DNA from: Nitrospirota bacterium
Lineage (GTDB): Bacteria > Nitrospirota > UBA9217
Assembly (NCBI GenBank): GCA_963663225.1
Contig: OY760142.1
Coordinates: 1,312,001 to 1,376,000 of the forward strand
DNA: 64,000 nucleotides
Direction of reading: 5' to 3'
Notes under the pieces: model-generated
What the model was told of the DNA's origin: nothing
What the model saw: the letters and a program-made list of their open reading frames with translations, nothing else
Database searches by the model: none
Shown: positions 12,901-48,864 of the stretch, piece by piece
How the letters are laid out: each line of letters opens with the position of its first letter
Numbering within the stretch: the stretch's first letter is position 1
Program-made: the position numbers and the translations under genes

Positions 12901-13705
12901 TATAATGTTTGCCGCTGCTTTGGAAAATATCAGCATAGAAACGGCTGTTGTCGATGTGCCGGGCCATGTCTTTGTGATGTTTAATACGGGAATACCGGAG
13001 CAGGAACGAAAAACGCTCGGTTTTCCGGATGAATTGCTGGTCGTATACCGCGGCACCGTCTGGTTGCCGCTGGAGATGACAATGGTAGGGTCGTCGTTTA
13101 CGCAGGCCTGGCAGAAAGGTGCAGAAGAATTCCGGGACTGGTCTGCAAAAGGAAAGGCGGATATTATCAGCATTCATAAGGCGTGGGAGCTTTTTAGACC
13201 GGTCACGCAGCCTTATACAGATTTTAGTCCTGAAAAAATCAAGCGCGAAGCGATTGAAGAAAAATACAAAGATGAGCTTGAAAAGCTTGCACGGCAGCGT
13301 CTTGCCAATCTGTCCGCGGGGTACCGTGCAACACTGAAAAAAAATCCTGGTGATCTGGAGTCCCTGGGACAGCTCGGCATTCTCTACGGAGAAAACGGCA
13401 TGACATCCGAGGCGATGGAGCAGTTCCAGAAAATGCTGGCCCACGACAAAACCAACGCCTTAGCGTTGAATAATATCGGAAACATCAGTTATTTACAGGG
13501 CAGGTTCGACGACGCCCGCCAGGCTTATGAGGCCGCGCTCAAGTCAATGCCGGACGATCCCGGGGTCATGGTAAACCTCGCCCGCGTTCTGCACCATTCG
13601 GGCAAAAAAGATGCTGCCAAGAAGTTGTTCCAAAGAGCAGCCGCACTTGATCCGCGCGTAGTACGGCAATACGCCGACCTTGCCGGAAGCCTGGGTATAA
13701 AGTAA
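9914..13705 (+). CDS. large secreted protein: NHL beta-propellers + 2 FN3 + transglutaminase-like domain + TPR
   Basis: about 12 repeats of F..P.GIAVD..G.IYVADTGN.RIQVF; two LSW...Y..YR FN3 units; GDCDG / GHVF / PLEMT; C-terminal TPRs; GGAGG RBS. Confidence 0.85.
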   Translation: MAILWRICLFILLIAPAASAYQQIDFLREIGVTDKQTGQAGRLDAPRAMAVGGELLYVADTDAHRIAVFDQSGKMVRTWGLKGSKSGQFRRPAGIALDEQGKIYVSDTGNHRIQVFTAEGKLIRSFGVKGSSPREFNNPHGIASVKGLLYVADTGNSRVQVMTNDGIFLHQITVKTKKEEMEAPISVAVDTQNTLYVLDADACNIRIFDALGNQLRVFGARGSGQEGFEKPQGIAVDNRGIIYIADTGNFKAKKFNPGGKLIASIGAEGDGRGQFREIAGIAVDPEYRIWTLDAGKNTIQLFTSERDDSPLLAPSSPLPIPEISKDLPGEATAVAFNKRLWGLTGDSLVAIGDSGGGRSIGSSGSDPGLLKKPRGMTVDSQGNFWIADTGNDRLQKFSLEGSLLQVLGKSGGGEGEFNSPASMAVSPKGNIYVADTGNRRIQVFSPKGVFLGAFGKEGSQSGQFKEIVDITVDAAENIYIVDRGNDRVSKTDSNGTLLWEAGKTGKQEGELQSPENILVTADGEVFVLDAGNARIQVFNSSGKFLRKFGSEGSEPGTFSNPQGMALEEGRRLFVGDPGNKRIQTFLLKFTPETPKEVTAQAKINEIQLSWKPNAETYFQHYNIYRAASPADAFNLIGTATAPFYVDKNLPSNHTYQYRVTSQAWDGNETASSAVVHATTPKLVPAQPKKIRIEATEKHITLSWLPNTEPFVMQYRVYRSKQPTAGFELAAKSEKTILLDGPLADETLYYYQITAVGKEGDESQPSEVVFAATPKAPLTAPPVEISSIELGEIFASAYKYYESHPLGKVVIANQTDRTYTKVKVSFSVKDYMDFPTELEIATLAPKQKVELLLKPVFSNAILDVSENTPLQSEIALTYHVGGEAKTITRSFPVMLYEKHAIRWDQKEKIGAFVTSKDPVINDFTRAVVQPYVDAYPNLDKSIVYARAIYAALGVMGISYLVDPTPFQEFSENTTIVDYTLYPRDVLIRKSGDCDGLSIMFAAALENISIETAVVDVPGHVFVMFNTGIPEQERKTLGFPDELLVVYRGTVWLPLEMTMVGSSFTQAWQKGAEEFRDWSAKGKADIISIHKAWELFRPVTQPYTDFSPEKIKREAIEEKYKDELEKLARQRLANLSAGYRATLKKNPGDLESLGQLGILYGENGMTSEAMEQFQKMLAHDKTNALALNNIGNISYLQGRFDDARQAYEAALKSMPDDPGVMVNLARVLHHSGKKDAAKKLFQRAAALDPRVVRQYADLAGSLGIK

Positions 13706-13780
13706 AGTTCTTGCCAATGCCGACAGCAATACTAAAATTACACGATCCCACATTTGCAGCCATGACCAAGGAGGTCTGAA

Positions 13781-14299
13781 ATGATGAAAAAAACAGTTTC
13801 TTTCCTAGCGGCTTTTGTTCTCTGCTGCACGACGGTGCTTTTGGCGCAGGACAAAACCGAATCAACTCTGTCTGCTTGGCTAAAAAGCATTCAACAGAAA
13901 CTCGAGCAAATCGTCCCTAAAAAATCACTTCCCATGGCTACAGGCGTGGCGGGGACGCGCGGCGCAAAGGATGACACCTCGGTCAAGCTGTACTGGAAAG
14001 GCAAAAAAGGCGATGAATCGGTGACCGAAGAAGAGCTGCTCAAATTCAAGGCAGGCGTGGATTTGGCCGGGAAAGGCGACCGTGAGGGGTCGGTCAAGGC
14101 ATTGGATGATTTTATGAAACAATATCCTGACAGCGCATTGATACCCGATGCTAAAAAAACGTTTGATCTGGTGAAGGCAGAGAGCACACCCGAAGGGAAA
14201 ATTGAGAAAAAAGCGGAAACAGACGAAGTAAAAAAAGAAACCAAAAAAGAAGTAAAGAAGAAGGCTAAAAAAGCGAAAAAACAAGATGAAGGGAATTAA
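13781..14299 (+). CDS. secreted hypothetical protein with a TPR-like helix pair and Lys-rich tail
   Basis: signal peptide, AAGGAGG RBS, GVAGTRGA motif, FMKQYPDSALIPDA helix pair. Confidence 0.8.
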   Translation: MMKKTVSFLAAFVLCCTTVLLAQDKTESTLSAWLKSIQQKLEQIVPKKSLPMATGVAGTRGAKDDTSVKLYWKGKKGDESVTEEELLKFKAGVDLAGKGDREGSVKALDDFMKQYPDSALIPDAKKTFDLVKAESTPEGKIEKKAETDEVKKETKKEVKKKAKKAKKQDEGN

Positions 14300-14357
14300 C
14301 AATACTGCAACTGTTCTCTAGGCGCACGGAGCGGTGCTCTGTGCCATTTCCTATTTC

Positions 14358-14384
14358 AAGGCAGGGAATTTTCCCTGCCTTTTT
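14358..14384 (+). terminator. Rho-independent terminator
   Basis: AAGGCAGGGA/TCCCTGCCTT stem followed by Ts. Confidence 0.8.
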
Positions 14385-14455
14385 GCTTGCAATCGGCAGT
14401 GGGTGCAGCCATTTTTTTCTGGATGTTTCCCTGCTGATTTGATAGTCTAGTCCGC

Positions 14456-15715
14456 ATGCCACATCGAAGAACTTCAAGAACACCCTGGGCTTTTATCCCG
14501 TCGCTTTACTTCGCAGAAGGACTGCCTTACGTACTGATCAATACGGTTTCGGTCATTCTCTACAAACGCATGGGCGTTGATAATGCGAGCATTGCTTTCT
14601 GGACCAGCTGGCTTTACCTGCCCTGGGTCATTAAAATGTTCTGGGGGCCGGTTGTAGACATTTACTCCTCCAAGCGCGTCTGGATACTGAGCACGCAGGC
14701 AGCCATGAGTATATGCCTGTTTGGCATCGCGTTTTCGCTCAGGAGCGAGTCGTTTTTCTTTCTTTCGCTTGCTGCGTTCAGCGCCGGCGCTTTTATTTCC
14801 GCAACTTATGACATTGCCACAGATGGTTTTTACATGCTGGCACTCAGTGAAAAAGAGCAGGCCTTTTTCGTAGGCATCCGGTCCGCTTGTTACCGGTTGG
14901 CCATGATTTTCGGGTCGGGGCTTCTGGTCTATCTCGCGGGGCTGCTCGAAACAGCAAGCGGCGACATTGCCCGGAGCTGGTCTTTTGTGATGGCTGCTTC
15001 CGGCCTGCTTCTTGGAGCCGCCCTGATTTACCACAAGTTCATGCTTCCGGTTCCCGCGGTTGACGGTGTGCGCGCGCTCAGAAACAATGCAGACAGCGTA
15101 TCATTTGCAGAAGTCATCCGCGCATATTTCAACCAGAAGAAAATCGGAATTATTCTGGCATTCATCCTTCTTTATCGGCTTGGCGAGGCTATGCTGCTGA
15201 AGCTTGTTTCGCCGTTTTTTCTTGATTCACCTGCCGGGGGAGGATTGGGGCTTTCAACGCAGGACGTTGGTCTTGTGTACGGTACCGTAGGGGTGCTGTG
15301 TCTCGTTTTGGGCGGCGTACTTGGTGGGGGGCTCATATCCCGCTTTGGCTTTAAACGCTGTGTCTGGCCCATGGTGATAGCCATGCACCTTCCTGATCTT
15401 TTCTTCGTTTATATGGCCTATTCACAGCCGGCGATTTGGCTCGTTTACCCGCTTGTAGCAATGGAACAGTTCGGCTATGGTCTTGGATTCACGGTTTTTA
15501 CCGTGTATCTTATGTATGTAACGCAGGGAAAGTACAAGACGTCTCACTATGCCATTTCAACCGGAATTATGGCTTTAGGCATGATGCTGCCCGGGTTTGT
15601 AAGCGGCTGGATCCAGGAAGCGGTAGGGTACAGAGTGTTTTTTGTCCTTGTTTGTTTTCTGACAATTCCGGGCGTATTGACCATCCCATTTATTCCAAAA
15701 GACAACATAGAATAA
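14456..15715 (+). CDS. ampG: AmpG-family MFS transporter (muropeptide permease-like)
   Basis: SLYFAEGLP, LPWVIK, SATYDIATDG and YRLGEA motifs; about 12 TM segments. Confidence 0.8.
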   Translation: MPHRRTSRTPWAFIPSLYFAEGLPYVLINTVSVILYKRMGVDNASIAFWTSWLYLPWVIKMFWGPVVDIYSSKRVWILSTQAAMSICLFGIAFSLRSESFFFLSLAAFSAGAFISATYDIATDGFYMLALSEKEQAFFVGIRSACYRLAMIFGSGLLVYLAGLLETASGDIARSWSFVMAASGLLLGAALIYHKFMLPVPAVDGVRALRNNADSVSFAEVIRAYFNQKKIGIILAFILLYRLGEAMLLKLVSPFFLDSPAGGGLGLSTQDVGLVYGTVGVLCLVLGGVLGGGLISRFGFKRCVWPMVIAMHLPDLFFVYMAYSQPAIWLVYPLVAMEQFGYGLGFTVFTVYLMYVTQGKYKTSHYAISTGIMALGMMLPGFVSGWIQEAVGYRVFFVLVCFLTIPGVLTIPFIPKDNIE

Positions 15716-15790
15716 ACCTTTCATGCGAAGGAAGGATCGTCATGTGGAGAAAAAGCGAAAGCCGGGTTAAATGCCAGCGGGGTTCCTCAG

Positions 15791-16039
15791 CTATTCTTTC
15801 CAGTTGCCGGATAACACATAGCCGATAATGATGCCCAGAACAATGTTGGTCGTTCCTCTGTCGAGTTTATCGTTGATGCCGAGAATGATCAGAAGCGGCA
15901 GTAAAAAAACAACTGCCAGGAATTGGATTGCCCGTATTCCCAGCGTCGCGTTCTGTTTAGTTACCAGATAAAAAACACCGTACAGGCCACCTGCCATAAT
16001 AAGTGCCACTATTATGCTTATCCACAGCTGCTGATACAT
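15791..16039 (-). CDS. small membrane protein (about 3 TM)
   Basis: GGAGG RBS upstream of ATG 16039; hydrophobic segments. Confidence 0.7.
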   Translation of the reverse strand: MYQQLWISIIVALIMAGGLYGVFYLVTKQNATLGIRAIQFLAVVFLLPLLIILGINDKLDRGTTNIVLGIIIGYVLSGNWKE

Positions 16040-16257
16040 GGTTTTACCTCCCTTAACGGACTTTTTTGCACGCGCAGATAAAGAAGCGTGTTGCATTATA
16101 ATGAACAAAAGGCGTTTTGTCAAAGGGGTAATAACGTTGGAATCTGGATTATCGAAACTTACACTAGTTTCTTCGTTAAAAAGCGGGTAAAATGTCGAAA
16201 AATGCTGCCTTCTTCCGGGAGCAGGTGGTACAATGGGAAAACGCAACGGGGTGATAT

Positions 16258-17184
16258 ATTAACAAGGTTCTCTGTCTATTCGGACTGATTATAGCAGCAG
16301 GGTATGCGTGGAGGTATTTCAACCCGGGAGGCATTGACCGGCACCGGGTGCGGCATGTGTTAAGCGTGGCCGTCCTGAATTTCTTTCTGGTGGCATTGGC
16401 GTTTAACCTTGTTGCTTCTGCACGGTTCGACCGGACTTTTCTCCTTATACCTTTGACGGGAGTCGTCGCCATTGTTGCTAGCATGACTGTCGGGTTCGGT
16501 GTTTACGCGTTGCTTGCCCGCTTCGTTCATATCCCACGGCCGGTATTCGGCGTAATGATCTTTGCCGCGGCATTCGGCAATGTGATTGTTCTTGGCCTCC
16601 CGGTTATTGTCGAACTGCTTGGTCCTGAACAGGCATACGTATCAATCCTGTACGACCAATTGGCGGCGACGCCGATATTGCTGACCATCGGAGTATTCAT
16701 AGCCGCCCGGTATGGAAGCGGAAAAAGTGTCTCCCTTGCATCGTCGCTGAAGCGGGTAGGCATGCTTCCGCCGCTTTGGGGCGTTGCAGCAGGGATTGCT
16801 GCCCATCTCGCGGGAATAACGGTTCCTCAATTCGTGATGGACGCCACTGCACTTATGGGCGGTGTGGTGGTTCCGGTCATGATCTTTATGGTTGGGCTTG
16901 CCCTTGATTTTCAGGACCTGAGGCGGCTGCCGATAGCAATTCCTGCCATCGCAATCAAGCTGCTGGTGGCGCCAGTGCTGGTCTTGGGTATCGGCTCGTG
17001 GTTTGGCCTTACGGGTAGTTCACTCAAAGCGGTGGCGATTGCAGGGGCCATGCCGGTGATGGTGACGTCGCTGGTACTGGCAGATGAGTTTAATCTGGAT
17101 GTGCCGCTTACCGCGCTGTGTATTGCGATATCGACGGTTGGACTTTTTTTTACCATGCCGCTTATGCAGAGAATGCTTTTTTGA
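16258..17184 (+). CDS. AEC (auxin efflux carrier/malate permease) family transporter; start uncertain
   Basis: FGNVIVLGLP, IKLLVAP and AMP motifs; first TM helix lies upstream of GTG 16348 and the frame is open back to TGA 16252. Confidence 0.8.
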   Translation: MNKVLCLFGLIIAAGYAWRYFNPGGIDRHRVRHVLSVAVLNFFLVALAFNLVASARFDRTFLLIPLTGVVAIVASMTVGFGVYALLARFVHIPRPVFGVMIFAAAFGNVIVLGLPVIVELLGPEQAYVSILYDQLAATPILLTIGVFIAARYGSGKSVSLASSLKRVGMLPPLWGVAAGIAAHLAGITVPQFVMDATALMGGVVVPVMIFMVGLALDFQDLRRLPIAIPAIAIKLLVAPVLVLGIGSWFGLTGSSLKAVAIAGAMPVMVTSLVLADEFNLDVPLTALCIAISTVGLFFTMPLMQRMLF

Positions 17185-17243
17185 AAAAAAAGCACGGGAC
17201 ACACAATGCCTAAAAGGGCGCGGTTGTTTTTTGGGGATATTTC

Positions 17244-18146
17244 ATGGCATATGCCGGTGAAGGCAAAAGATTTCTCGTCGATATCCACGTTCATGGCGCG
17301 GAACAGTACGATACCCGCACGCGGCGGGAAGAAGATATCCTTCGCATGGCCAGGATTCATGGAGAACGCGGAACCGGACTTGTTCTGCCAACCATATACC
17401 CGGGCTCTCTTGTGGACATGCGAGAGAATATAAGCGCTGTAAGGCGCGCGATGCAGGCACAACGGGAGGGGGCAAAAATTTTCGGGGTGCATTTGGAAGG
17501 CCCGTTTCTGAACAGCAACTGCGCCGGCGCCTTGGACAAGAGCAGTTTTGCAGAACCCTCCCTCGACATGCTTTCGCGCCTGGTTTCCGGCTTTGAGGAC
17601 ATTATAAAAATCATCACGATTGCGCCTGAGCTGCCGGGAGCGCTCCGTATCATTGAAGTGTGCAGGGGAAAAGGTTTTCTCGTCCAGATGGGCCACAGCA
17701 ATGCAACCTATGAACAGGCGGAAGAGGGAAAACGTGCCGGTGCTACGGGTATTACCCATGTGTTTAATGCCATGCGGGGTTTCCACCACCGAGAACCGGG
17801 TCTTACGGGGTTCGGGCTCATGGATGAGGACCTGTACGTGGAAGTGATCGCAGATATGGTTCACGTCCATCCGCAAAGCCTCAAGATGTTGTTTGACATG
17901 AAATCAGCGGAAAAAATTCTGCTTATTTCCGATTCAGTAAAAGGTCCGGGCTGGGGAAACGGCCCTCTGCGGGGAGCCGGCGGCATGCTGTTGGGAAGTG
18001 GAATAGCTTTGGCAGATGCGGTAACAAATCTGATTGAGCACGGGATACCTCCGGAACGGGCCTATCAGTTTGCCTCGGATAATCCTTTGGCATATTTGGG
18101 CATATCGGATCTTGACCGCGTGGCGCCCAGCTTGCCGAATGCCTGA
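17244..18146 (+). CDS. nagA: N-acetylglucosamine-6-phosphate deacetylase (short form)
   Basis: DIHVHG, HLEGPFL, TIAPE, GHSNA, THVFNAM and ISDS motifs. Confidence 0.88.
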   Translation: MAYAGEGKRFLVDIHVHGAEQYDTRTRREEDILRMARIHGERGTGLVLPTIYPGSLVDMRENISAVRRAMQAQREGAKIFGVHLEGPFLNSNCAGALDKSSFAEPSLDMLSRLVSGFEDIIKIITIAPELPGALRIIEVCRGKGFLVQMGHSNATYEQAEEGKRAGATGITHVFNAMRGFHHREPGLTGFGLMDEDLYVEVIADMVHVHPQSLKMLFDMKSAEKILLISDSVKGPGWGNGPLRGAGGMLLGSGIALADAVTNLIEHGIPPERAYQFASDNPLAYLGISDLDRVAPSLPNA

Positions 18147-18229
18147 TTGTGCAACACGATGAACAGCATATGCGCGGTTTTTCCGTTCGTGTCTCTGTGC
18201 TGTCGGAATCTCATGAGGGGTGTTTTTTT

Positions 18230-18883
18230 ATGAAGCCAGTCAGTCTTCTTATCTTTGATCTGGACGGAACGCTCGTCGATACGCTCGGCGACATAACCGC
18301 GTCGACCAATTTCGTGCTCGGCCGCTTCGGCAGGCAACCGCTCGAAATGCAGACTGTTCGCCGTTACGTGGGAGACGGGATCGGCAAGCTCGTCGAACGC
18401 TCCTTCGGCGGCAGAGCCGAAAACCTTGCAGAGGCAGTTGCGCTGTACAAGGAACACCACCGTCAAAACTTCACGACCCACTCTGCGCTGTACCCGTCGG
18501 TCAGGGCAACACTGGAATGTTTCAGTCAGATTCCGAAGGCGGTTATTACGAACAAAAGCATGGAGTTCTGCAAGCCATTGCTTGAGCACCTCGGGATTGT
18601 GCAGCATTTTGACATGATTATCGGCGCGGATTCCGGCCTGCCGCTCAAACCTGCTCCGGATGCTATTTTCAGGATCATTGAAAAGCACGCTATTTCCAAG
18701 GAACATGCGGCAATTATTGGGGACGGCACGACGGATATTCAGGCAGGCAAAGCGGCGGGTATTATTACTTGCGCGGTCACATACGGATTTCGTTCTGAGG
18801 AAGAGCTGAAAAAAGCAGGGCCGGATTATACGATTCATACCATGGCGGACTTAAAGAATATTTTTGTTCCGGTATCCGTCTGA
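18230..18883 (+). CDS. HAD-IA phosphatase (phosphoglycolate phosphatase/MupP-like)
   Basis: FDLDGTLVDT, TNK, KPAP and GDGTTDIQAG motifs. Confidence 0.9.
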   Translation: MKPVSLLIFDLDGTLVDTLGDITASTNFVLGRFGRQPLEMQTVRRYVGDGIGKLVERSFGGRAENLAEAVALYKEHHRQNFTTHSALYPSVRATLECFSQIPKAVITNKSMEFCKPLLEHLGIVQHFDMIIGADSGLPLKPAPDAIFRIIEKHAISKEHAAIIGDGTTDIQAGKAAGIITCAVTYGFRSEEELKKAGPDYTIHTMADLKNIFVPVSV

Positions 18884-18952
18884 TTTTTTTGTGTATGCCG
18901 GGCTGGACCGCTGCCGTCCCAAAAAACTGCATAGCCTAAACTGAGGAAAGAC

Positions 18953-20065
18953 ATGCCCTCTTATCCGACATCAGAGCCTTCCCGCGGTTCATTCGCAGGA
19001 GGGCACTCTGCAATGAATTATCTGCCGCGGTTAATTGCCTGGGAAGTGACCAGAAGCTGCCTCCTCAACTGTATTCACTGTAGAGCTGCAGCGCGATACG
19101 GCCCCTACGAAGGAGAACTGACAACGGAGGAATGCTGCCGTTTTCTGGATGATGTCAAGTCGTTCAGCGATCCGATCATGATTCTTACCGGCGGCGAGCC
19201 TATGATGCGCACCGACATTTATGACATTGCTGCGTACGGTTCTCAGCTGGGGCTCCGCATGGTGATGGCTCCCTGCGGTCTGCTCGTGACCGAGGAGCAT
19301 GCCAAAAAAATCAAAAGGTCCGGCATTATGCGGGTATCACTCTCCCTCGACGGATTAACCGCAGAGAGCCACAATGCGTTTCGGCGTGTGGAAGGGGCGT
19401 TTGAAGGCGTGATGCAGGCAATCGAAAACCTCAAAAAGGCCGGCGTGGAATTTCAGATCAATACCACGGTTACAAAGCACAATGTGGGAGATTTGCCGCA
19501 GCTTCTCGAAATGATAGTCAAGCTCGGCGCCGTAGCGTACCATCCATTCCTTCTGGTGCCGACCGGCCGCGGCAAGGCCCTTGCTGATATGGAAGTGTCT
19601 CCTGCCGACTACGAGAAAACACTAAAATGGTTTTATGACATGAGAGACAAGGTGCCGATACAATTCAAACCCACCTGTGCTCCGCATTATTATCGGATCT
19701 TCCGGCAGGAAGAACAGCGCAAGGGCAAAACCGTCACTCCTGCTTCGCACGGGCTTGACGCCATGACCAAAGGCTGCATGGGAGGGCAAAGCTTTGCCTT
19801 CGTATCCCACGTGGGAAAGGTGCAAATTTGCGGCTTTCTCGAGGAAGAGGCCGGCGACATCAAGAGCGAGCCTTTCTCGAAAATATGGAACACGTCGCAA
19901 TTGTTTCGTGAAATGCGGGACCTTGACCGATACCACGGTAAATGCGGCATCTGTGAGTACCGCAGGATTTGCGGCGGCTGCCGTGCGAGGGCTTTTGCCG
20001 TTTCCGGCGATTACCTTGCCGCGGAGCCCTTCTGCACCTATGAACCGAAACGAGTGAAACCATGA
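18953..20065 (+). CDS. ahbD: radical SAM/SPASM protein, AhbD/NirJ-like (probable heme b synthase)
   Basis: LIAWEVTRSCLLNCIHCRA, TGGEP, LVPTGRG, TCAPHYYR and CxxC...CGGCRARA SPASM motifs. Confidence 0.75.
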   Translation: MPSYPTSEPSRGSFAGGHSAMNYLPRLIAWEVTRSCLLNCIHCRAAARYGPYEGELTTEECCRFLDDVKSFSDPIMILTGGEPMMRTDIYDIAAYGSQLGLRMVMAPCGLLVTEEHAKKIKRSGIMRVSLSLDGLTAESHNAFRRVEGAFEGVMQAIENLKKAGVEFQINTTVTKHNVGDLPQLLEMIVKLGAVAYHPFLLVPTGRGKALADMEVSPADYEKTLKWFYDMRDKVPIQFKPTCAPHYYRIFRQEEQRKGKTVTPASHGLDAMTKGCMGGQSFAFVSHVGKVQICGFLEEEAGDIKSEPFSKIWNTSQLFREMRDLDRYHGKCGICEYRRICGGCRARAFAVSGDYLAAEPFCTYEPKRVKP

Positions 20066-20982
20066 CCGACGAACGATTGAAAACCGGAACAATGAGCACG
20101 ATTCTTGATTTATTTCTAGAAAAGAAGGAGAAGAAAGGCAAGATGGAAGACCAGAATTTGGGACGCATACTTGTTAAACTCGACAAACTGCTTGACCGAT
20201 ATGTTAACGAGGGCTCGGACAAACCCGCGTTTGAGGACTACCAGGCTTTTATCTGGGACGGCACGAAAAAAATCATGAAACCGATCAAACGACCGGTGCA
20301 GATGTGCCAGGAAGACCTTATCGGCATTGAGATGATAAAGCAGGAAGTATTCCGCAACACCCAGCATTTTATCGACGGTAAAAAATCAAACAATGTACTG
20401 CTGTGGGGTGAACGGGGCACCGGAAAATCGTCCTTGCTGAAGTCGCTGCTGACGACGTTTAAAAACACACCGCTTCGCATGATCCAGATTTATAAACACG
20501 ATATTCTCACGCTTCAGGATATATATGATCTTCTGGCCCGAAACGCCTCCTACCGCTTCATTCTTTTTCTCGATGACCTGTCGTTCGAGGAAAACCAGAC
20601 GGACTACAAGCAGATGAAAACAATTATGGACGGCGGTCTCGAGCAAATTCCCTCGAATGTGGTCTTTTACGCCACGTCGAACCGCAAGCACCTTATCCCG
20701 ACCCGTTTTTCGGATAATGACGGCGATATTACGAGACCGTCGGACACCGTGGAAGAAAAGGTTTCCCTGGTGGACCGCTTCGGTCTGCGTTTCGGGTTTT
20801 ATCACTTTTCGCAGGAGACGTACCTTGATATTGTTGCCTCCTATGCGGCAAAGTACGGCGTTTGCATGGAAAAAAGCGAGCTTGAGCAAAAAGCCATTCA
20901 ATGGGCCCTCGGCGCTGGCGGCAGAAATGGACGGATTGCAGAACAGTTCGTCCGGGCCATGCAGGAGGGGGAAGTCCGCTAA
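20062..20982 (+). CDS. DUF815-family AAA+ ATP-binding protein
   Basis: GERGTGKSS, FLDDLSFE, YATSNRKHL and SLVDRFGL motifs. Confidence 0.88.
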   Translation: MTDERLKTGTMSTILDLFLEKKEKKGKMEDQNLGRILVKLDKLLDRYVNEGSDKPAFEDYQAFIWDGTKKIMKPIKRPVQMCQEDLIGIEMIKQEVFRNTQHFIDGKKSNNVLLWGERGTGKSSLLKSLLTTFKNTPLRMIQIYKHDILTLQDIYDLLARNASYRFILFLDDLSFEENQTDYKQMKTIMDGGLEQIPSNVVFYATSNRKHLIPTRFSDNDGDITRPSDTVEEKVSLVDRFGLRFGFYHFSQETYLDIVASYAAKYGVCMEKSELEQKAIQWALGAGGRNGRIAEQFVRAMQEGEVR

Positions 20983-20992
20983 AGAATAGACA

Positions 20993-22828
20993 GTGAAATC
21001 GGCGCTGAAGGAGCGTGTGGTGATAGGGGTTATTCAACGATATCTTTTGACAGTGATCGTGAGTTGCGTTGCCGTCCCCGGCATGCTTATCGCGGCGGCA
21101 ACGGAAGGCCGTGCCGACGTCGTGCTGCAAATCAACTATGATTCCGTCAAGGAGTCGGCAGCACAGTTTATTCGAAATGAAATGAAAAAAACCGATGCGA
21201 TCGGTTTGAGTATCGCGCTGGTGGACAACCAGCGGCTGGTATGGGCGCAGGGATTCGGATACGCCAATATCAGAAAAGACCAGGCTGCGACTCCGGATAC
21301 CGTGTACCGGATCGGCAGCCTTACCAAAATTTTTACTACGCTCGCAGCAATGCAGCTTTCAGAACAGGGAAAGCTGAATATCGATGCACCCATCAAATCA
21401 CTTCTTCCGGAATTTGCAATCCGGACGCGGTTTGAAACAAAAACGCCGATTACCGTTCGCGATCTCATTACCCATCATTCCGGCCTGCCGTCCGACTTCC
21501 AAAAAGGGATGTGGAGCAAAAATCCGGATTCCTTCTCAGCCATTACCAGGCTGATCAAGGACGAGTATGCGGCGTATCCTCCGGGATTTATTTTTTCATA
21601 CTCCAACATAGGTTATGACTTGCTCGGTCTCGTGATTGAGCGTGTAAGCGGACAGGACTACGCCCAGTTCGTCCAGGGTTCGCAGCTGAAGCCGCTGAAT
21701 ATGCGTCATTCCGGTTTCACCCCGCCGGCGGCACTATTGCTGCTGTCTGCCGGTTACTCCAGGGGAAAAGAGATGGATGATCCACCGTTGCGGGATGTTC
21801 CCGCCGCCGGCATGTACTCAACGGTCCTGGACATGAGCCGCTTCATGAAGATGCTGTTCGCAAACGGGGCGCTGGACAACCGGCAAATCATCAAGCCCGG
21901 AACGCTCGCGATGATGTTCAGGCCCCAAAATGAAAATGTCCCGCTGGATTTGGGGCTCCGCGTCGGGCTTGGCTGGATGCTGGGTGGGCTTGGTGAAGTT
22001 GAGATTCTGAATGCAGGCACGGTCGCGCATAAGGTCGGCGCCACCATGATGTTCCGCAGCGCCATGATTGTTCTGCCGAAACACAAGCTGGGCGTGATCG
22101 TGCTTTCAAACTCTTCCACAACGGGGCGGATGGTGAGCAAAGTCGCGGTGCAGGCACTTACCCTTGCGCTCGAAACAAAAACAGGCATCAAGCAGCCTGT
22201 TTCCGAAGCCCCGCAGGAGGCGGATCTTCGGCTGTCTCAGGACGTCCTGCGGACATACGCCGGAAACTATGCATCCATGGTGGGTCTTGCAGAGATAACG
22301 CCAAAGTCTGATCGATTTGATCTCGAAGCCCTGAACAGGACATTTCATCTCATACCGCATAGTAATGGAAAATTTGGAGCAAAATACGCCCTCCTGGGTC
22401 TGTTCCCCTTCAGTCTGGCGGAACTCGATGACTACGAAGTGTCCTACGCAAAGGTGGCAGGACGCGAAATACTCCGGGCAACAACCAAAGGCAGCGATTT
22501 GCTCGTAGCGGAAAAAATTCGGCCCATGCCGATTCCGAAAACATGGCAAATGCGGGCAGGAAACTATCGGATTGAAAATTTGGGAGACGATTTTCCCCTG
22601 CTGAGCAAAATTGCCGTTCGCTTTGAAAAAGATTTGCTCCTTGCAGAATGCAGTCTGCCGTTTTTTTTCAAAAGCACCTTTCGGTTTCCGCTAAAGCCGG
22701 TTTCAGATACCGAAGCTGTGCTGGCTGGATTGGGCGGACGGAGCATGGGGGAGACAATCAGGGTGATTACCGTCAACGGAAAAGAAAAATTGCTGTACTC
22801 CGGATATGTGCTCGGCAGGGAAGAATAG
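20993..22828 (+). CDS. serine hydrolase, beta-lactamase class C/AmpH-like, with a C-terminal extension
   Basis: GSLTK (SxxK), THHSG and YSN motifs; start uncertain. Confidence 0.85.
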   Translation: MKSALKERVVIGVIQRYLLTVIVSCVAVPGMLIAAATEGRADVVLQINYDSVKESAAQFIRNEMKKTDAIGLSIALVDNQRLVWAQGFGYANIRKDQAATPDTVYRIGSLTKIFTTLAAMQLSEQGKLNIDAPIKSLLPEFAIRTRFETKTPITVRDLITHHSGLPSDFQKGMWSKNPDSFSAITRLIKDEYAAYPPGFIFSYSNIGYDLLGLVIERVSGQDYAQFVQGSQLKPLNMRHSGFTPPAALLLLSAGYSRGKEMDDPPLRDVPAAGMYSTVLDMSRFMKMLFANGALDNRQIIKPGTLAMMFRPQNENVPLDLGLRVGLGWMLGGLGEVEILNAGTVAHKVGATMMFRSAMIVLPKHKLGVIVLSNSSTTGRMVSKVAVQALTLALETKTGIKQPVSEAPQEADLRLSQDVLRTYAGNYASMVGLAEITPKSDRFDLEALNRTFHLIPHSNGKFGAKYALLGLFPFSLAELDDYEVSYAKVAGREILRATTKGSDLLVAEKIRPMPIPKTWQMRAGNYRIENLGDDFPLLSKIAVRFEKDLLLAECSLPFFFKSTFRFPLKPVSDTEAVLAGLGGRSMGETIRVITVNGKEKLLYSGYVLGREE

Positions 22829-22876
22829 CAGAACTTCAGAAACCAGTTTTTAACGGCACTACGGAACCGTCTTTCC

Positions 22877-24007
22877 ATGAAAACCGACTTAAAAAGAATT
22901 GCTGCAAATGTATCACGCCTTTCCATGCTTCTGACGCGGGAGCGGAAAAACCTTCCTGCTTCCTATCTCACCGATCCCGGTTTGCGGGAAGCGTACACGG
23001 CGTATTTTCTCTCTACGAACAGGAAAAAGATACACCAGCCTCTGGACGAGCTTTCCCGTCACCCGGACGGATTGCTTGCAAAAAACAAACTGCGCATTCT
23101 TGACATAGGCTGCGGACCCGGCACCGCAGTGTTGGGCGCAATGGAGTTCTTTGCACGAAAAGACAGCATGCCGCAGCTGGAGTTCGTTGCGATTGATCAA
23201 GTGGAGGAAAATCTGAAGGAAGCAAAGGCGCAATTTTCTGAACATCGCGGCGCGCTGCAGGTTCCGGCCTCCTTGAAATCCGTACTCGCAGACGTTATTG
23301 AAGTGGAACATCTGCATGAGAATCGCTTCGACATAATCATTCTCTCGAATGTTCTGAACGAACTGTTTCTGCAAGCCGAGGAAAGGATCCCAAAGCGGAC
23401 AGAGATGCTCAGCAGAATTCTGAACCATCTTCTCCGTGATGACGGCAGCTGCATTGTTATCGAACCCGCCCTGAGGACGACTTCCCGTGAGATGATAGGG
23501 GTGCGGAACGCAATCGCGGACCATGGCTTCTCTGTTTATTCACCCTGCCTTTTCACCGGTGTTTGCCCGGCGCTTGCAATGCAGAAAGACTGGTGCCATG
23601 AAGATATTTCCTGGACAGCGCCTTCGTTTATACAGGAGATTGACAAACGGGCAGGACTTCGCAGAGATTCACTCAAATTTTCCTATTTCGTTCTTAGAAA
23701 CGACGGGCGTTCCCTGCGGGATTGCTACAGCCCGGGTGTATTTCGTGTCGTAAGCGATCCTCTTGTATCAAAAGGGAAACGAGAGTTCTACATTTGCGGA
23801 GAAGGCAGCAGGCGGTTGATTACAAGGCTTGATAAAGACGCTTCAACCGAGAATAAAGCGTTTGAGCGTTTGCAGAGAGGCAGCATAACTTCTTTTAATC
23901 GGTTGGTTGTGGAACATAAACGTTGCAAAGTAGAAAAAGACACGGTGGTGCACAGGATTGACGAACAGGGAGAGGATGCGCCCAGTCGCCCTTTCCTCAA
24001 GGCATGA
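22877..24007 (+). CDS. Rsm22/METTL17-family SAM-dependent methyltransferase-like protein
   Basis: AYTAYF, LDIGCGPGT, IEPA, SPCx5Cx9CH and KFSY motifs. Confidence 0.8.
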   Translation: MKTDLKRIAANVSRLSMLLTRERKNLPASYLTDPGLREAYTAYFLSTNRKKIHQPLDELSRHPDGLLAKNKLRILDIGCGPGTAVLGAMEFFARKDSMPQLEFVAIDQVEENLKEAKAQFSEHRGALQVPASLKSVLADVIEVEHLHENRFDIIILSNVLNELFLQAEERIPKRTEMLSRILNHLLRDDGSCIVIEPALRTTSREMIGVRNAIADHGFSVYSPCLFTGVCPALAMQKDWCHEDISWTAPSFIQEIDKRAGLRRDSLKFSYFVLRNDGRSLRDCYSPGVFRVVSDPLVSKGKREFYICGEGSRRLITRLDKDASTENKAFERLQRGSITSFNRLVVEHKRCKVEKDTVVHRIDEQGEDAPSRPFLKA

Positions 24008-24035
24008 GAAAATTACTTGCAGGGATCATGAACAA

Positions 24036-24542
24036 ATGAGCAGATACAGGCAACCGCTAAAGCCCGGGTCAAAATACATAACAGCAGAAGGGAAAAAACG
24101 GCTGAGTGATGAGTTTGAATTCCTTTGGAGGAGCAAGCGTCCGGAAGTGACCGCCGCGCTCGCAGCGGCAGCGGCGGAGGGGGACCGCTCAGAGAATGCG
24201 GAGTATATCTACCGTAAAAAACAGCTCCGCGAGATTGACAGCCGCATTCATCACCTGAAAGAACGGTTGGAACATATTGTGGTGGTCGATGGAAAACCGG
24301 ATGACGTGTCCCGCATATTTTTCGGCGCCTGGGTGCGCCTGGAAGATGAGAACGGCAGCATCTTCGATTACCGCATTGTCGGACCGGATGAGTTCGACCC
24401 GGCCAGAGGACTGATCAGCATGGATTCGCCCTTGGCGAGGGCCCTGATGAAAAAATCGGAAGGGGACGAAGTAATCGTGAAGCGGCCCAAAGGTGAAGCC
24501 TGTTTTGTCATCGCACGCGTCCAGTATGAACCGTTTTCATAA
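24036..24542 (+). CDS. greB: transcription elongation factor GreB
   Basis: YITAEG, AAEGDRSENAEYIYRKKQLREIDSRI and ISMDSPLARAL motifs. Confidence 0.92.
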   Translation: MSRYRQPLKPGSKYITAEGKKRLSDEFEFLWRSKRPEVTAALAAAAAEGDRSENAEYIYRKKQLREIDSRIHHLKERLEHIVVVDGKPDDVSRIFFGAWVRLEDENGSIFDYRIVGPDEFDPARGLISMDSPLARALMKKSEGDEVIVKRPKGEACFVIARVQYEPFS

Positions 24543-24589
24543 ACCGGACGGCAAAAGCAGACCGGGTAGCAAAACGGCAGCAGGAGGAA

Positions 24590-25303
24590 TTGTTGAACCT
24601 CATCCTTCTTTTTCCGGATGATTTTAACGGCGATAAAAACCACGTGCGGCTGCAAGGCCGTCGCTTACAACACGTTTTGACAGTGCATCGTGCCTCGGTC
24701 GGAGACAGTCTGTGCGTCGGCAAGGCCGGCGAAAGCATCGGCACCGGAACAATCACTCGTCTCAGCGAAACCGTTCTTGAAATGGCGGTGCAATTTGATC
24801 GGCAACCGCCGTTACCGCTTCCTCTGACCCTTCTGCTGGCACTCCCGAGGCCGAAAGTGTTGAAGCGGGTGCTCCGTTCCGTCAGTGCTCTGGGCGTGAA
24901 GCGGATTGTTCTGCTGAACAGCTTTCGTGTGGAAAAGAGCTACTGGCAGAGTCCGGTGCTGTGCAGGGAGTCCCTGCAAGAAGAATTGGTGGCGGGCCTT
25001 GAACAGGCCAAAGACACGGTGCTTCCTGAAATTCTGCTCCGGCCGTTTTTCAAGCCGTTCGTGGAAGACGAACTGCCCGGTCTTGCTGCCGGAACGCTCG
25101 CCTTTGTGGCCCATCCCACAGCAGTGAGGGATTGTCCGCGCGGCATACAAAAAGCAGCAACACTCGCAATCGGTCCCGAAGGCGGCTTCATACCCTACGA
25201 AATCGAAAAGTTTATACAACAGGGATTTACGCCGGTTCAGACGGGGAACCGGATACTGAATGTTGAGACCGCAGTACCGGCCATTATTTCGCGGTTGTAT
25301 TAA
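24590..25303 (+). CDS. rsmE: 16S rRNA m3U1498 methyltransferase RsmE
   Basis: LALPRPK, EKSYW, IGPEGG and ILNVETA SPOUT motifs; TTG start with AGGAGG RBS. Confidence 0.88.
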   Translation: MLNLILLFPDDFNGDKNHVRLQGRRLQHVLTVHRASVGDSLCVGKAGESIGTGTITRLSETVLEMAVQFDRQPPLPLPLTLLLALPRPKVLKRVLRSVSALGVKRIVLLNSFRVEKSYWQSPVLCRESLQEELVAGLEQAKDTVLPEILLRPFFKPFVEDELPGLAAGTLAFVAHPTAVRDCPRGIQKAATLAIGPEGGFIPYEIEKFIQQGFTPVQTGNRILNVETAVPAIISRLY

Positions 25304-45365: not shown

Positions 45366-45426
45366 ACTCTTTTATTCCTTTCAGCAGCTCAGGCTGAGCA
45401 GCGTCCAGCAAAATCAAACCTGCTGA

Positions 45427-45660
45427 TTATTTTGCCGGGCAAGTCGTCACGCAAGCCTCATATCCTTCTTTACAAGCTCTTAACGTTTCAGACTTGAAAC
45501 CAACCTGATTCCCTCCAGAAACACACGACGAATAAGTTATTGTGCATTGTCTTGCGCAAGTAGCCTCGACTTTGCTTATATCCACATCTTTAATGCTATA
45601 AGCACAGCCAGTAAATGATATAAAAACAGTGAAGAAAAGCAGTAATAAAATTTTCATCAA
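45427..45660 (-). CDS. small Cys-rich lipoprotein
   Basis: FTGC lipobox, six further Cys, GGAGG RBS. Confidence 0.7.
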   Translation of the reverse strand: MMKILLLLFFTVFISFTGCAYSIKDVDISKVEATCARQCTITYSSCVSGGNQVGFKSETLRACKEGYEACVTTCPAK

Positions 45661-45731
45661 TAGCCTCCCATGTTTTGGACTGCCTTATGGCCCTTCCTGA
45701 AGATCAGTATGTCAATAACTTCGTTTATCTA

Positions 45732-46862
45732 TCAAAGAACTTCACGCACCACAGTTTTGCGCAATAAGGCCGACAGAAGCCAGCTCGCGATCAAGCCAAC
45801 AAAGAGGGTGAGCAGGAACTTGAGTTCTGCCGGCAAAGGCTTCGTGAGCAGGTAGAACTGAAACCAAGTCACAAAACCGTAATGAAAGATGTAAATGCCG
45901 TACGCGTTCGCTGTAAAGCTGTCCGCCAGGGGCCGGGCAGTCCGAAAGAAAGAATGGGCAAGGCCCAGCGCGCCAAGACTGGTGAAGGCGCAGCAGAGAG
46001 AATAGATTGTAGCAGGGAGTGCTTTTACTACCCATTCCGGCATGTTCGCGAAATACTCCGCCCTCAATCCCAGCAAACCTGCCACATACGCTAAAATTCC
46101 CAAGGCAAGCCAAAGCGGCCACGGTCTTAGATTGTCTCGCGATAAAGACAGTTCTAAGTTTGCGGCGCCGAGCGCAGCGCCAAGCAGAAACCAGCCAAAA
46201 TACAGGAAGAGCCTCCCGGTCTGAAAAACGAACGGGCCCCACAAGCGGGTCCATGCCTCGGGCAGAATGAACAGGGACGGGAGAACGGTTGTCAGCAGGG
46301 TCACAGTCAGTACTATGCCGACCAGGCTCCGGGCCGATAAGGCGGAGAGGGACAACTTTTTCATGAGATTGGGAATCAATCGATAGGCGACGGCGACAAC
46401 CCCTGAGAAAGCAAGCAAGAGCCAGATGAACCAGGCCGGCCCGGGCGTCCAATTGCTGTTGTCAAAGAATCCAGACAGAAAATCCCCCCGGCTAATCGGG
46501 TCGCTTAAAAGCCAGGATGGGTAGAACGCCAGCGGGCTGAGCACCATGGCGGAGATAATGAAAGGAATGCCAAGGCGTTTCGCACGGTCGGAAAGGAATC
46601 GACCAGATCTCTTTCGCTCAAGGGCCGGCATCACGAACAGCCCTGATATGAGAAACATAAGGGGCATGAAGAACATATCGTTGAAGTGCACAAGAAGGTC
46701 GAGCGGCATCCAACGGAGCGTATCAACGACCGGCGCGGTGGATCGCAAGTACTGCGCAGGGTCGTAATGACTGAAAGTGGTGTATGCCAGTGCAGCGTGA
46801 TGTACGACTACCAGTATGGTTACTCCGCTCCGCAGGTAGTCGATCGCCAGGTTTCGTTTCAA
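45732..46862 (-). CDS. acyltransferase-3 family membrane protein (OpgC/MdoC-like); probable third cassette
   Basis: IDYLR, VVHH, FFMPLMFLISG, RAKRLGIP and YGIYIFH motifs; TTG start with GGAG RBS right after an attC. Confidence 0.85.
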   Translation of the reverse strand: MKRNLAIDYLRSGVTILVVVHHAALAYTTFSHYDPAQYLRSTAPVVDTLRWMPLDLLVHFNDMFFMPLMFLISGLFVMPALERKRSGRFLSDRAKRLGIPFIISAMVLSPLAFYPSWLLSDPISRGDFLSGFFDNSNWTPGPAWFIWLLLAFSGVVAVAYRLIPNLMKKLSLSALSARSLVGIVLTVTLLTTVLPSLFILPEAWTRLWGPFVFQTGRLFLYFGWFLLGAALGAANLELSLSRDNLRPWPLWLALGILAYVAGLLGLRAEYFANMPEWVVKALPATIYSLCCAFTSLGALGLAHSFFRTARPLADSFTANAYGIYIFHYGFVTWFQFYLLTKPLPAELKFLLTLFVGLIASWLLSALLRKTVVREVL

Positions 46863-46881
46863 ACGGTTTCTCCGAAAGGGA

Positions 46882-46938
46882 ATCCAATGCGGCAGTTAAG
46901 CCGCGCGCGTAGCGCGTCGCTGGAATCTTTGGTTATAC
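46882..46938 (-). repeat. attC site (59-base element) with a degenerate R' box
   Basis: minus strand GTATAAC-CAAAG-ATTCCAGC-GACGCGCTACGCGCGCG-GCTTAAC-TGCCGC-ATTGGAT: canonical R''/L''/L'/R' spacing; R'' overlaps the TAA stop of the upstream ORF. Confidence 0.8.
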
Positions 46939-47436
46939 GGTTTTTTGTTTCCTGAACCAACCCCCAAAGGTATGCTGAATCATTGCTCCAACAGCAGAGA
47001 ATGCCTCAATTTCTTCCTTTTCAGGATCATTTTTCTCTAAAAGGTTTATTGAGAGCCAGCTACCCATCGCTTGATGAAAGGGAATCCCAGCCTCGCAATA
47101 GCGGTGTAGTAAACCGCTTAGATTCTCCAATGCCTGATAGCCTTTTGAATGGAATCGGAAGAGTTCTTCTCCAATCTTCGTATAGACAGTTTCACGTTTG
47201 TCCTCTGGAACATAGTCGGCGATAGTAACAAATGCAGTTCCGACAGAGGCAACTGTGACATGAAAATCCCATGATTCAGCAGGCACTGCGCCACTCTTGA
47301 AGTAATCACTAATCAGAGGGATGTTATCAATGGCTGTCACTGTTGAGTTCGTTGCAAAAATGCTTGCTGACTGCACCAAGTTTGTTGCTTGATTCTCAAA
47401 ATAATTGTCTTTGTCGAAGAATCTCCCGAAAACCAT
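46933..47436 (-). CDS. hypothetical protein (cassette 2)
   Basis: 167-aa ORF with GAGG RBS, bounded by attC-like sites; AT-richer than the backbone. Confidence 0.8.
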   Translation of the reverse strand: MVFGRFFDKDNYFENQATNLVQSASIFATNSTVTAIDNIPLISDYFKSGAVPAESWDFHVTVASVGTAFVTIADYVPEDKRETVYTKIGEELFRFHSKGYQALENLSGLLHRYCEAGIPFHQAMGSWLSINLLEKNDPEKEEIEAFSAVGAMIQHTFGGWFRKQKTV

Positions 47437-47472
47437 TCTTTTACCTCATGCTAGAAATAAGTTTGCCTCATT

Positions 47473-47525
47473 CGATAACGCCGCCGTGATGGACCGTCAG
47501 GTTTCTCTCGAGAGCGTTGTTAGTC
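47473..47525 (-). repeat. degenerate attC-like site
   Basis: minus strand GACTAAC-AACGC...GCGGC-GTTATCG, 53 bp, 6 nt after the stop of the upstream ORF; L boxes pair poorly. Confidence 0.55.
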
Positions 47526-47531
47526 TTGATG

Positions 47532-48071
47532 CTATTTCGTCTGGGGCTTGTTATGCTTATTAAGCATTTCAACCGAAGCGTTCTTCATCGTTTCTGCGAG
47601 CTTGGCTGGAATATAAATAGCAATAACATTCATTGATAACATGTCAGGCTGCGAATTGAGCGGATAACGATATTTCAATCCATAGATAAGAACATCGCCG
47701 CTCTTGTTTTGCCAGTCGGTTTGCCAAACGTGAACCTTTGTATTTGGCTTTCTTGATGCATCTTCATAGTCAGACCAGCCACGCACGATTGATGTTGGCA
47801 GACCTGGGTTTAAGAAGTCCTCTTTGAGAGGTGTCCAGCCCATGTCGTTTGTTTTCTTTAAGAGTTGATCGATAACTTCAGGAGCAGGATAGGCGGCTTT
47901 AAGATTGTAAGTCACCTGATCAGTATTGTTGACCTTTGCATAATTAATGTTTGTTGCTCCTGCTAAAACTATTAAAGACTCTGAATAATTCTTCGAGTCA
48001 TGATTTGCTTTGGTCTGACAGCTGGAGATAAGAACAGCCAGAAGCACCAACGAGAACGAAAAATGTTTCAT
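47532..48071 (-). CDS. hypothetical lipoprotein (cassette 1)
   Basis: MKHFSFSLVLLAVLISSC lipobox, AGAGGTG RBS; alternative ATG at 48095. Confidence 0.8.
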   Translation of the reverse strand: MKHFSFSLVLLAVLISSCQTKANHDSKNYSESLIVLAGATNINYAKVNNTDQVTYNLKAAYPAPEVIDQLLKKTNDMGWTPLKEDFLNPGLPTSIVRGWSDYEDASRKPNTKVHVWQTDWQNKSGDVLIYGLKYRYPLNSQPDMLSMNVIAIYIPAKLAETMKNASVEMLNKHNKPQTK

Positions 48072-48105
48072 GAATACACCTCTGCTTTGGCCCATTACTC
48101 CACCG

Positions 48106-48127
48106 GACTAACAAGCTATTAGCAACT
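48106..48127 (-). other. attI-like recombination site
   Basis: minus strand GTTGCTAATAGCTT-GTTAGTC; the core is the exact reverse complement of cassette 1's R'' GACTAAC, with no attC hairpin upstream. Confidence 0.55.
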
Positions 48128-48134
48128 CGAAAAT

Positions 48135-48163
48135 ACGGTAGCATATATTCGTAGCTTGGTCAA
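48135..48163 (-). promoter_or_regulatory. Pc-like sigma70 promoter facing the cassette array
   Basis: minus strand TTGACC-N17-TACCGT with an extended -10 TG. Confidence 0.5.
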
Positions 48164-48333
48164 TTAATTTAAGAATTTCTTGCTAATTATTAGAATTTAT
48201 TGGAACCCGAAATAATAACATTTAAAATATGGCATAGCTTTTGAGGAATACTGAGATTGTAGTCTGTTACGAATGTCACATTCCACGAATCGTTTCTTGA
48301 ATTCCCTCGCCCTCCCATGCTACACTGCCTTTT

Positions 48334-48864
48334 ATGATAGCTACATTTTTCCAAAGCCTCAATCGACGTCACGTTCCGCGTAGACTTGGTGAACGATCTG
48401 TATTGGGTTTAGTTGTTGGCATCGGGATCAGTTTTCTGATTTCCTCCATGGGTGTACAAACGGCATATGCTGGTGAAGCGTCAGCAACACGGTTGCAGCA
48501 GCCCAGGATGGTTGTTGTAATGCCGTCTGATTCCTCTTTGCTTGCGAAAACTTTTCGTGTAGTTCTCCTGTGCAACACGCTGGAATCGCGCACGAACGGC
48601 CTGCAAGGGTTCAGAAAGTTGAATAAGAACGAGGCAGCTTTGTTCGTCTTCGACAAACTAGAAGAAGTTACCTTCTGGATGGGAAGCGTTGCTTATCCCA
48701 TAGATATTATTTTCGTCGGCCCAAACAAGAAAATTATCAAAGTGTACCGAAACCGCCAGCCAGGCAGTCAGGACTTGTATTCTTCCATCAGCAAGACAAA
48801 ATGGGTGATTGAAACTGCCGCAGGTTCGGGGATCAAGGCCGGAGACAGAATACGCATAGAATAG
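48334..48864 (+). CDS. DUF192 family protein
   Basis: RTNGLQ, LFVF, FWMGSVAYPIDIIF and WVIETAAG motifs; start uncertain. Confidence 0.8.
   Translation: MIATFFQSLNRRHVPRRLGERSVLGLVVGIGISFLISSMGVQTAYAGEASATRLQQPRMVVVMPSDSSLLAKTFRVVLLCNTLESRTNGLQGFRKLNKNEAALFVFDKLEEVTFWMGSVAYPIDIIFVGPNKKIIKVYRNRQPGSQDLYSSISKTKWVIETAAGSGIKAGDRIRIE

Follow-up and report, generated by a model that had tools for sequence, protein, structure and literature searches.

In this study, we analyzed an integron-like locus in a 64-kb stretch of DNA (the window, by which we mean the whole stretch) from an uncultured Nitrospirota bacterium. The locus lies between rpsA and a divergent DUF192 gene, and its cassette region reads on the minus strand. 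In minus-strand order, it consists of a predicted cassette promoter (Pc), an attI-like site, an open reading frame (ORF) of 187 amino acids (aa), attC1, a 167-aa ORF, attC2, and an acyltransferase-3 gene (Table 1). Every motif that the initial annotation had placed on this strand was present at its coordinates, and the three ORFs were as described there (lipoprotein, hypothetical protein, and acyltransferase-3). The integrase gene (intI) was absent, as had also been claimed: none of the 55 window ORFs scanned had a tyrosine-recombinase Pfam domain, and tblastn with IntI1 and the IntI of a related genome, L048, gave no IntI-like match in the 64-kb window. Where a complete integron has intI adjoining the array, only a 39-nt scar was found. 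An Rfam scan of the window returned only a tRNA, and a repeat finder detected no repeat family connecting the att sites.

Table 1. Features of the locus, listed by position in the window.
Feature	Position	Strand	Description	Basis
Acyltransferase-3 gene	45732..46862	-	Resident gene; downstream boundary of the variable region	L004 comparison; no attC after it
attC2	46882..46938	-	Decayed; 57 nt; R' ATTGGAT; L boxes pair 5/7	
Cassette 2 ORF	46933..47436	-	167-aa all-helical protein, no known family	
attC1	47473..47525	-	Decayed; 53 nt; R'' GACTAAC (47525-47519) and R' GTTATCG intact, L boxes mismatched	
Cassette 1 ORF	47532..48095	-	187 aa (179 aa from ATG 48071); probable lipoprotein, predicted PsbP/Mog1/DcrB-like fold	
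attI-like site	48106..48124	-	L box 48124-48118, 5-nt spacer, R box GTTAGTC 48112-48106; crossover between G48112 and T48111	L048 homology
Predicted Pc	48135..48163	-	-35 TTGACC, N17, TG extension 48143-48142, -10 TACCGT	Conservation in window, L004, L048
attI-intI intergenic remnant	48164..48256	+	PintI region; L004 has about 39 nt more here	Aligns to L048 90-230
Scar of intI deletion	48257..48295	+	Degraded first intI codons, DUF192 promoter directly after	In register with L048 intI start (alignment A5)
Flanking resident gene	48296..48864	+	DUF192 gene (SLC13-DUF192 fusion shortened internally) with its conserved promoter	

IntI takes the bottom strand of a circular cassette's attC, in folded form, and recombines it with attI at G/TT. 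After integration, the R'' box of the cassette is complementary to the bases with which that cassette starts, and transcription from Pc covers the cassettes closest to attI (PMC4889954, PMC8946536). A genome scan with a DUF192 alignment yielded 50 related loci, of which 49 carry the label Nitrospirota or an equivalent name. Of all 50, L048 alone (Nitrospirae bacterium GWC2_57_13, MHDZ01000054.1) gave an IntI match; it is an orthologous locus with an intact integron integrase. Its 476-aa IntI scored 381 bits with TIGR02249, against a curated cut-off of 265, and aligned with IntI1 across the IntI extra domain and the catalytic residues. The gene lies between a homologue of the attI-like site and SLC13-DUF192, which is followed by the same TIM-barrel gene as in the window. 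On the opposite strand, the stretch upstream of L048 intI was homologous to the window promoter and attI (74% over 66 nt); none of 1000 shuffles reached this match. The window site has the L box, the 5-nt spacer, and the GTT core at the head of the array that are proper to an attI, its L048 homologue lies upstream of a divergent intI, and recombination at it is predicted.

The homology continued beyond attI. The intergenic region aligned to L048 90-230 both in the window (12 of 1000 shuffles scored as high) and in a closer relative, L004 (CAZPGZ010000001.1; 0 of 1000). In the window and in L004, a remnant of the intI start is followed 38-39 nt later by a promoter that most relatives have ahead of SLC13-DUF192, and the two share one deletion junction. 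The scar of L004 reads Met-Gln-Ser-Ile, resembling the N-termini of related long IntI proteins. Because the homology of promoter, attI, and intergenic region reaches the intI start and is then succeeded by the DUF192 promoter, these results indicate that intI was deleted in place.

We also noticed a palindrome, TATTCC-N6-GGAATA, which occurs twice upstream of intI in L048 (129-146 and 165-182), in relaxed form in L004 (9837-9854), and degraded near window positions 48210-48240. Its position would be suitable for a repressor site, for example a LexA box; a literature search for a Nitrospirota LexA motif returned nothing relevant.

In the predicted Pc, the -35 hexamer, the spacing, the TG, and TA---T are common to all three homologous loci (window, L004, and L048). 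Pc was missing from the list of a consensus promoter scan because its -10 matches at just three of six positions, and it is a candidate promoter directed into the array by virtue of its conservation in relatives. Searched against the other 48 loci, which come from metagenome-assembled genomes (MAGs), an attI profile gave no match below E 0.5. The attI sites outside class 1 are poorly described, according to PMC9024848.

The comparison with L004 showed where the variable cargo begins. L004 is 94-98% identical to the window in 15 of 16 shared proteins, the exception being DUF192 at 79%. Pc-attI identity was 86%, and the following two 100-nt blocks had 52% and 66% (gaps counted). Nucleotide homology stopped at window 48107 and resumed at 46875; identity was 58/71 up to the crossover G and 14/78 after the GTT. 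Cassette content thus varies from the crossover on in this one genome pair: L004 has two unrelated ORFs in the slot and shares no gene with the window there. Its block starts with GTTAGTT and ends in an attC-like remnant with an R'' complementary at 6/7 positions, and L048 continues with yet another sequence after its GTT. The GC content at third codon positions (GC3) of the four variable ORFs was 0.30-0.44, versus 0.60-0.67 for rpsA, DUF3795, the acyltransferase gene, and the TIM-barrel gene. Each window cassette has a single ORF between a G/TT core and a complementary R'' box, in the same orientation, with complementarity of 7/7 for cassette 1 and 5/7 for cassette 2. The geometry, the complementary R boxes, and the homology break at the crossover indicate that insertion took place at attI.

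A rival account has the cassettes inserted at a secondary, attG-like GTT behind an ordinary promoter, where no integron ever stood. The junction is generally variable, in keeping with that idea: among 18 related loci showing rpsA and SLC13/DUF192, seven have fewer than 500 nt between the two, and others carry unrelated inserts. However, a secondary site does not account for about 190 nt of homology to the L048 attI-intI intergenic region that runs into the intI start, and the L048 comparison has largely refuted this account, which we consider very improbable.

We then scored the attC sites with R1, a covariance model built from 21 attC sites picked heuristically from plasmid integrons. Sites BLAST-matched to attC2 were excluded from training; three source loci had come via that search, and several sites belong to the same 60-nt family. 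In calibration, held-out class 1 sites scored 56-63 bits and divergent sites 15-25 bits. The top match of R1 in the 64 kb was attC2 (17.8 bits, E 0.042; next match 10.1 bits), which reached E 0.0023 in a local search. By arm-profile score it ranked first of 128,000 positions, and none of 1000 local shuffles reached it. It is 78% identical over its full length to the first attC of the class 1 integron on NZ_CP022156.1 (BLAST E 0.8, weak alone). A plasmid blastn with attC2 gave 19 records, of which four were examined: H1, H5, and H6 are class 1 attC sites, and H13 had no annotation and no attC by scan. The core of attC2 is ATT in place of the invariant GTT. For attC1, the R'' box is the exact reverse complement of GTTAGTC and begins 6 nt after the cassette 1 stop codon; an exact bracket of GTTNNNN and its reverse complement surrounds only six of 1982 ORFs examined, cassette 1 included. 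About half of its L-box positions pair, and by eye its arms resemble the qacG2 attC without the long loop. The intergenic stretch holding attC1 beat 994 of 1000 shuffles, though the best local match there uses another partner arm. The strict attC heuristic recovered neither window site, and plasmid blastn with attC1 gave six weak matches, none of them an attC by position.

Intact AAC/GTT cores, paired L boxes with an extrahelical base, and a bottom-strand hairpin, which mark a functional attC, were not found together, and both attC sites are best read as decayed. The initial annotation was thus right about the positions of the sites and the R-box complementarity of cassette 1, and not about their good state. 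It had also held that its reading would fall if neither site scored and relatives kept a fixed gene order; with our own model attC2 scored and attC1 did not, and the cassette content differs in L004. Chance matches in an AT-rich variable region could be suspected, given the unscored attC1 and the non-consensus promoter. Such matches would not put attC2 first in the window by two methods, break the homology at the predicted base, or place a homologous site next to a real intI; the comparisons refute chance, and we regard it as hardly credible.

An ATT in place of GTT was also seen in the last attC-like site before the acyltransferase gene in both the window (46888-46882) and L004 (8225-8219), the two sites being otherwise unrelated. 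The possibility that the attI-like site is itself a decayed attC was dropped, as R1 had no match there.

These results suggest that the locus is very probably a relic sedentary chromosomal integron platform from which intI was deleted. The proposal of the initial annotation that a chromosomal platform had lost its integrase is borne out by the L048 homology, the intI-start remnant, and the L004 cargo break at the attI crossover, whereas its alternative, a secondary array, found no support as the origin. The most likely course of events is as follows. A sedentary chromosomal integron would have stood between rpsA and SLC13-DUF192, with intI on the plus strand and Pc, attI, and array on the minus strand. 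IntI presumably inserted circular cassettes at the attI G/TT crossover, cassette 2 first and cassette 1 later. Nearly all of intI was then lost in a common ancestor of the window and L004, joining its first codons to the DUF192 promoter, as the comparison of the loci shows. Decay of the attC sites followed, so the two cassettes are now probably fixed and no longer excised efficiently. Judged by its conservation, Pc most likely still transcribes both.

Several results weigh against this reading. The intI-start remnant is short and by itself not significant (68 and 571 of 1000 shuffles). With R1, attC1 reached no more than 5.1 bits (E 2.3 over 3.5 kb) and ranked 84 of 128,000 by arm profile, and the L004 attC-like remnant was unscored, its best candidate being equalled by 45 of 1000 shuffles. 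An attI homologue was found in just two of the 50 loci and intI in one, the platform being absent from 48. The array of L048 is out of view, as the contig stops 13 nt beyond the crossover. In trees of two flanking proteins, of which the DUF192 tree came from a quick unfinished search, window/L004 and L048 were not sisters, so that a minimum of two gains or losses of the platform is required. Ancestral presence with losses and transfer between lineages both fit this patchy distribution.

The deletion is common to both lineages while their sequences part at the crossover, which means at least one change of the array that either followed the deletion or was independent of it. IntI supplied in trans is the simplest account, and may quite possibly be the correct one; a transiently re-acquired IntI would be another form of action at this attI after the loss. 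Tentatively, the orphan attI would have outlived its own integrase as a landing pad equipped with a promoter, Pc-attI staying conserved as IntI acting in trans exchanged the cassettes. It is also possible, if somewhat more doubtful, that no IntI acted after the deletion and that homologous recombination between lineages combined the deleted allele with different pre-existing arrays, with crossovers in Pc-attI, DUF192, or the acyltransferase gene. Such recombination leaves the relic origin standing and differs only in timing. It would fit the synonymous divergence (dS) between window and L004, which was 0.72 for DUF192 codons 1-66 and 0.35 for the rest, versus 0.09-0.23 for eight neighbouring genes. 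The region from attI to the 5' part of DUF192 is more diverged, and the DUF192 3' end jumps to 98-99% identity, resembling a recombination tract. Recognition between non-cognate attI and IntI is generally inefficient, according to PMC8946536, and all attC sites are decayed, which also favours recombination. However, both alleles have the same deletion junction despite old, diverged surroundings, and any crossover would be confined to the stretch of roughly 150 nt that separates attI from the scar. One genome pair cannot decide the timing.

A platform still live today, with an IntI encoded elsewhere in the genome or transiently present inserting at attI, would agree with the conserved attI core and Pc and with the 7/7 junction of cassette 1, and cassettes in clusters of attC sites lacking integrases (CALINs) are described as mobilisable in trans in bioRxiv 10.1101/2025.06.18.660453 and PMC4889954. 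In contrast, the attC beside attI is eroded and attC2 lacks GTT, which argues that the newest insertion is old. With just two cassettes and no intI in the 64-kb window, a live platform is unlikely.

The relic platform was compared with known systems. Integrase-less arrays are an already known kind, and integrase loss with array remnants has been described for CALINs, Xanthomonas, and Treponema. A CALIN consists of cassettes with attC but no neighbouring intI, the short array also being common to both, and intI loss is among the four origins proposed for it in Cury et al. 2016 (PMC4889954) and Neron et al. 2022 (PMC9024848). Here, Pc and attI were identified and the deletion scar traced, whereas 95% of CALINs lacked a recognisable intI pseudogene in the figures given in PMC4889954. 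The two-attC rule for CALINs (covariance model E < 1) may not hold here: with our R1 model, which took the place of the IntegronFinder model, one site had E 0.0023 and the other E 2.3. Like the present locus, the inactivated chromosomal integrons of Xanthomonas at the ilvD locus (bioRxiv 10.1101/2025.06.18.660453) have a fixed locus, a deleted intI, and array remnants at a syntenic position, as does the remnant in Treponema phagedenis (PMC3607928). The T. phagedenis remnant is called static in PMC3607928, whereas the gene content at attI differs here between two lineages with a single shared deletion. A differing first cassette behind one common intI deletion is the notable feature of the present locus. 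For Xanthomonas, Gillings 2005, as cited in bioRxiv 10.1101/2025.06.18.660453, reportedly found that arrays were usually identical among strains sharing an intI lesion. Class 2 integrons (Tn7) have cassette promoters within the attI region and not inside intI, and their integrase is usually inactive, in the account given in PMC8876359; unlike the present locus, they are mobile, carry a stop codon rather than a deletion, and hold resistance genes, our sequence comparison with them being the plasmid searches. The closest counterpart, L048, has homologous Pc, attI, and intergenic region and the same downstream genes as the window, but keeps its 476-aa IntI and the full SLC13-DUF192. In Nitrospirota, a 2022 survey of complete genomes reported just two CALINs (PMC9024848). 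Our literature search, which covered titles and the openings of abstracts for papers not cited here, turned up no work dealing with this locus or describing an attI from Nitrospirota; the supplements of bioRxiv 10.1101/2022.02.06.479319 and 10.1101/2025.06.18.660453 may hold comparable cases.

The cassette products were examined next. The cassette 1 protein has 15 homologues and no Pfam domain, and its GC3 was 0.44, versus 0.60-0.67 in the flanking resident genes. It has an N-terminal hydrophobic stretch followed by a cysteine, which we take to be a lipoprotein motif, and the product is probably an envelope lipoprotein. Its structure model had a predicted local distance difference test (pLDDT) score of 88, and the top structural matches were PA1624 (Z 8.3, root-mean-square deviation 3.6, 113 residues aligned) and DcrB (Z 7.8); the modelled fold would imply no particular function. 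Cassette 2, the stop codon of which lies inside the R'' box of attC2, has 10 homologues besides itself, no Pfam domain, and a GC3 of 0.41, and its top structural match (Z 7.2) was within the background of helical models. Neither cassette protein had a Pfam or NCBIfam match above cut-off or a Foldseek match at E 0.001, and the Atlas had no entry for any of four sequences tried. No plasmid homologue was found for cassette 1; the acyltransferase had two partial ones.

The acyltransferase gene marks the downstream boundary of the variable region because it is common to L004, has a dS like that of core genes (0.23, with 94% aa identity and GC3 0.65), and is not followed by an attC-like signal, so that it does not have the structure of a gene cassette. 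Beyond it, between the acyltransferase gene and DUF3795, we observed a second replaced slot (window 45385-45731, L004 6336-7041). In the window this slot holds a probable lipoprotein of 77 aa, rich in cysteine and low in GC3, and in L004 an isoprenylcysteine methyltransferase-like gene; no attC-like signal was found on either side of it in the window. At the other end, DUF192 (window 48334-48864) is usually fused in this group to an SLC13/ArsB-like permease. Short forms recur in several lineages (L031, L036, and L039 besides the window) and retain the initial 40-50 residues together with the last helix and DUF192. The conserved promoter at window 48296-48334, present upstream of SLC13-DUF192 in most related loci, has its -10 just 7-10 nt before the start codon, a geometry that suggests a leaderless transcript.

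Among the other related genomes, no locus had an attC in its rpsA-DUF192 interval by R1. With default filters the model gave two matches across the 50 MAG loci, each of them downstream of DUF192, and filters-off searches of L004, L010, L017, L026, L048, and L051 added nothing convincing. In L051, another Nitrospirota genome, a lone attC-like site (12133-12213) scored 27.3 bits; one of its R boxes has a 3-nt insertion. The site lies downstream of DUF192, from which a probable transporter gene and a small ORF separate it. L056 (NZ_CP007129.1; L056 positions 13649-24667), an unannotated Gemmatirosa plasmid record, has an IntI homologue, and 19 attC-like sites lie downstream of its intI in the stretch examined. 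L005 is labelled Betaproteobacteria yet is syntenic with the Nitrospirota loci and nested among them, and is perhaps a mis-binned contig.

The comparison of three genomes would define an attI and a candidate Pc for Nitrospirota and yields a concrete attI/IntI pair from this phylum, leaving the known mechanism unchanged. Arrays without an integrase are common and are as a rule regarded as frozen. What this locus offers is a view of such an array before and after the loss, with an intact platform in L048, a mapped deletion in two other genomes, and differing cargo behind it.

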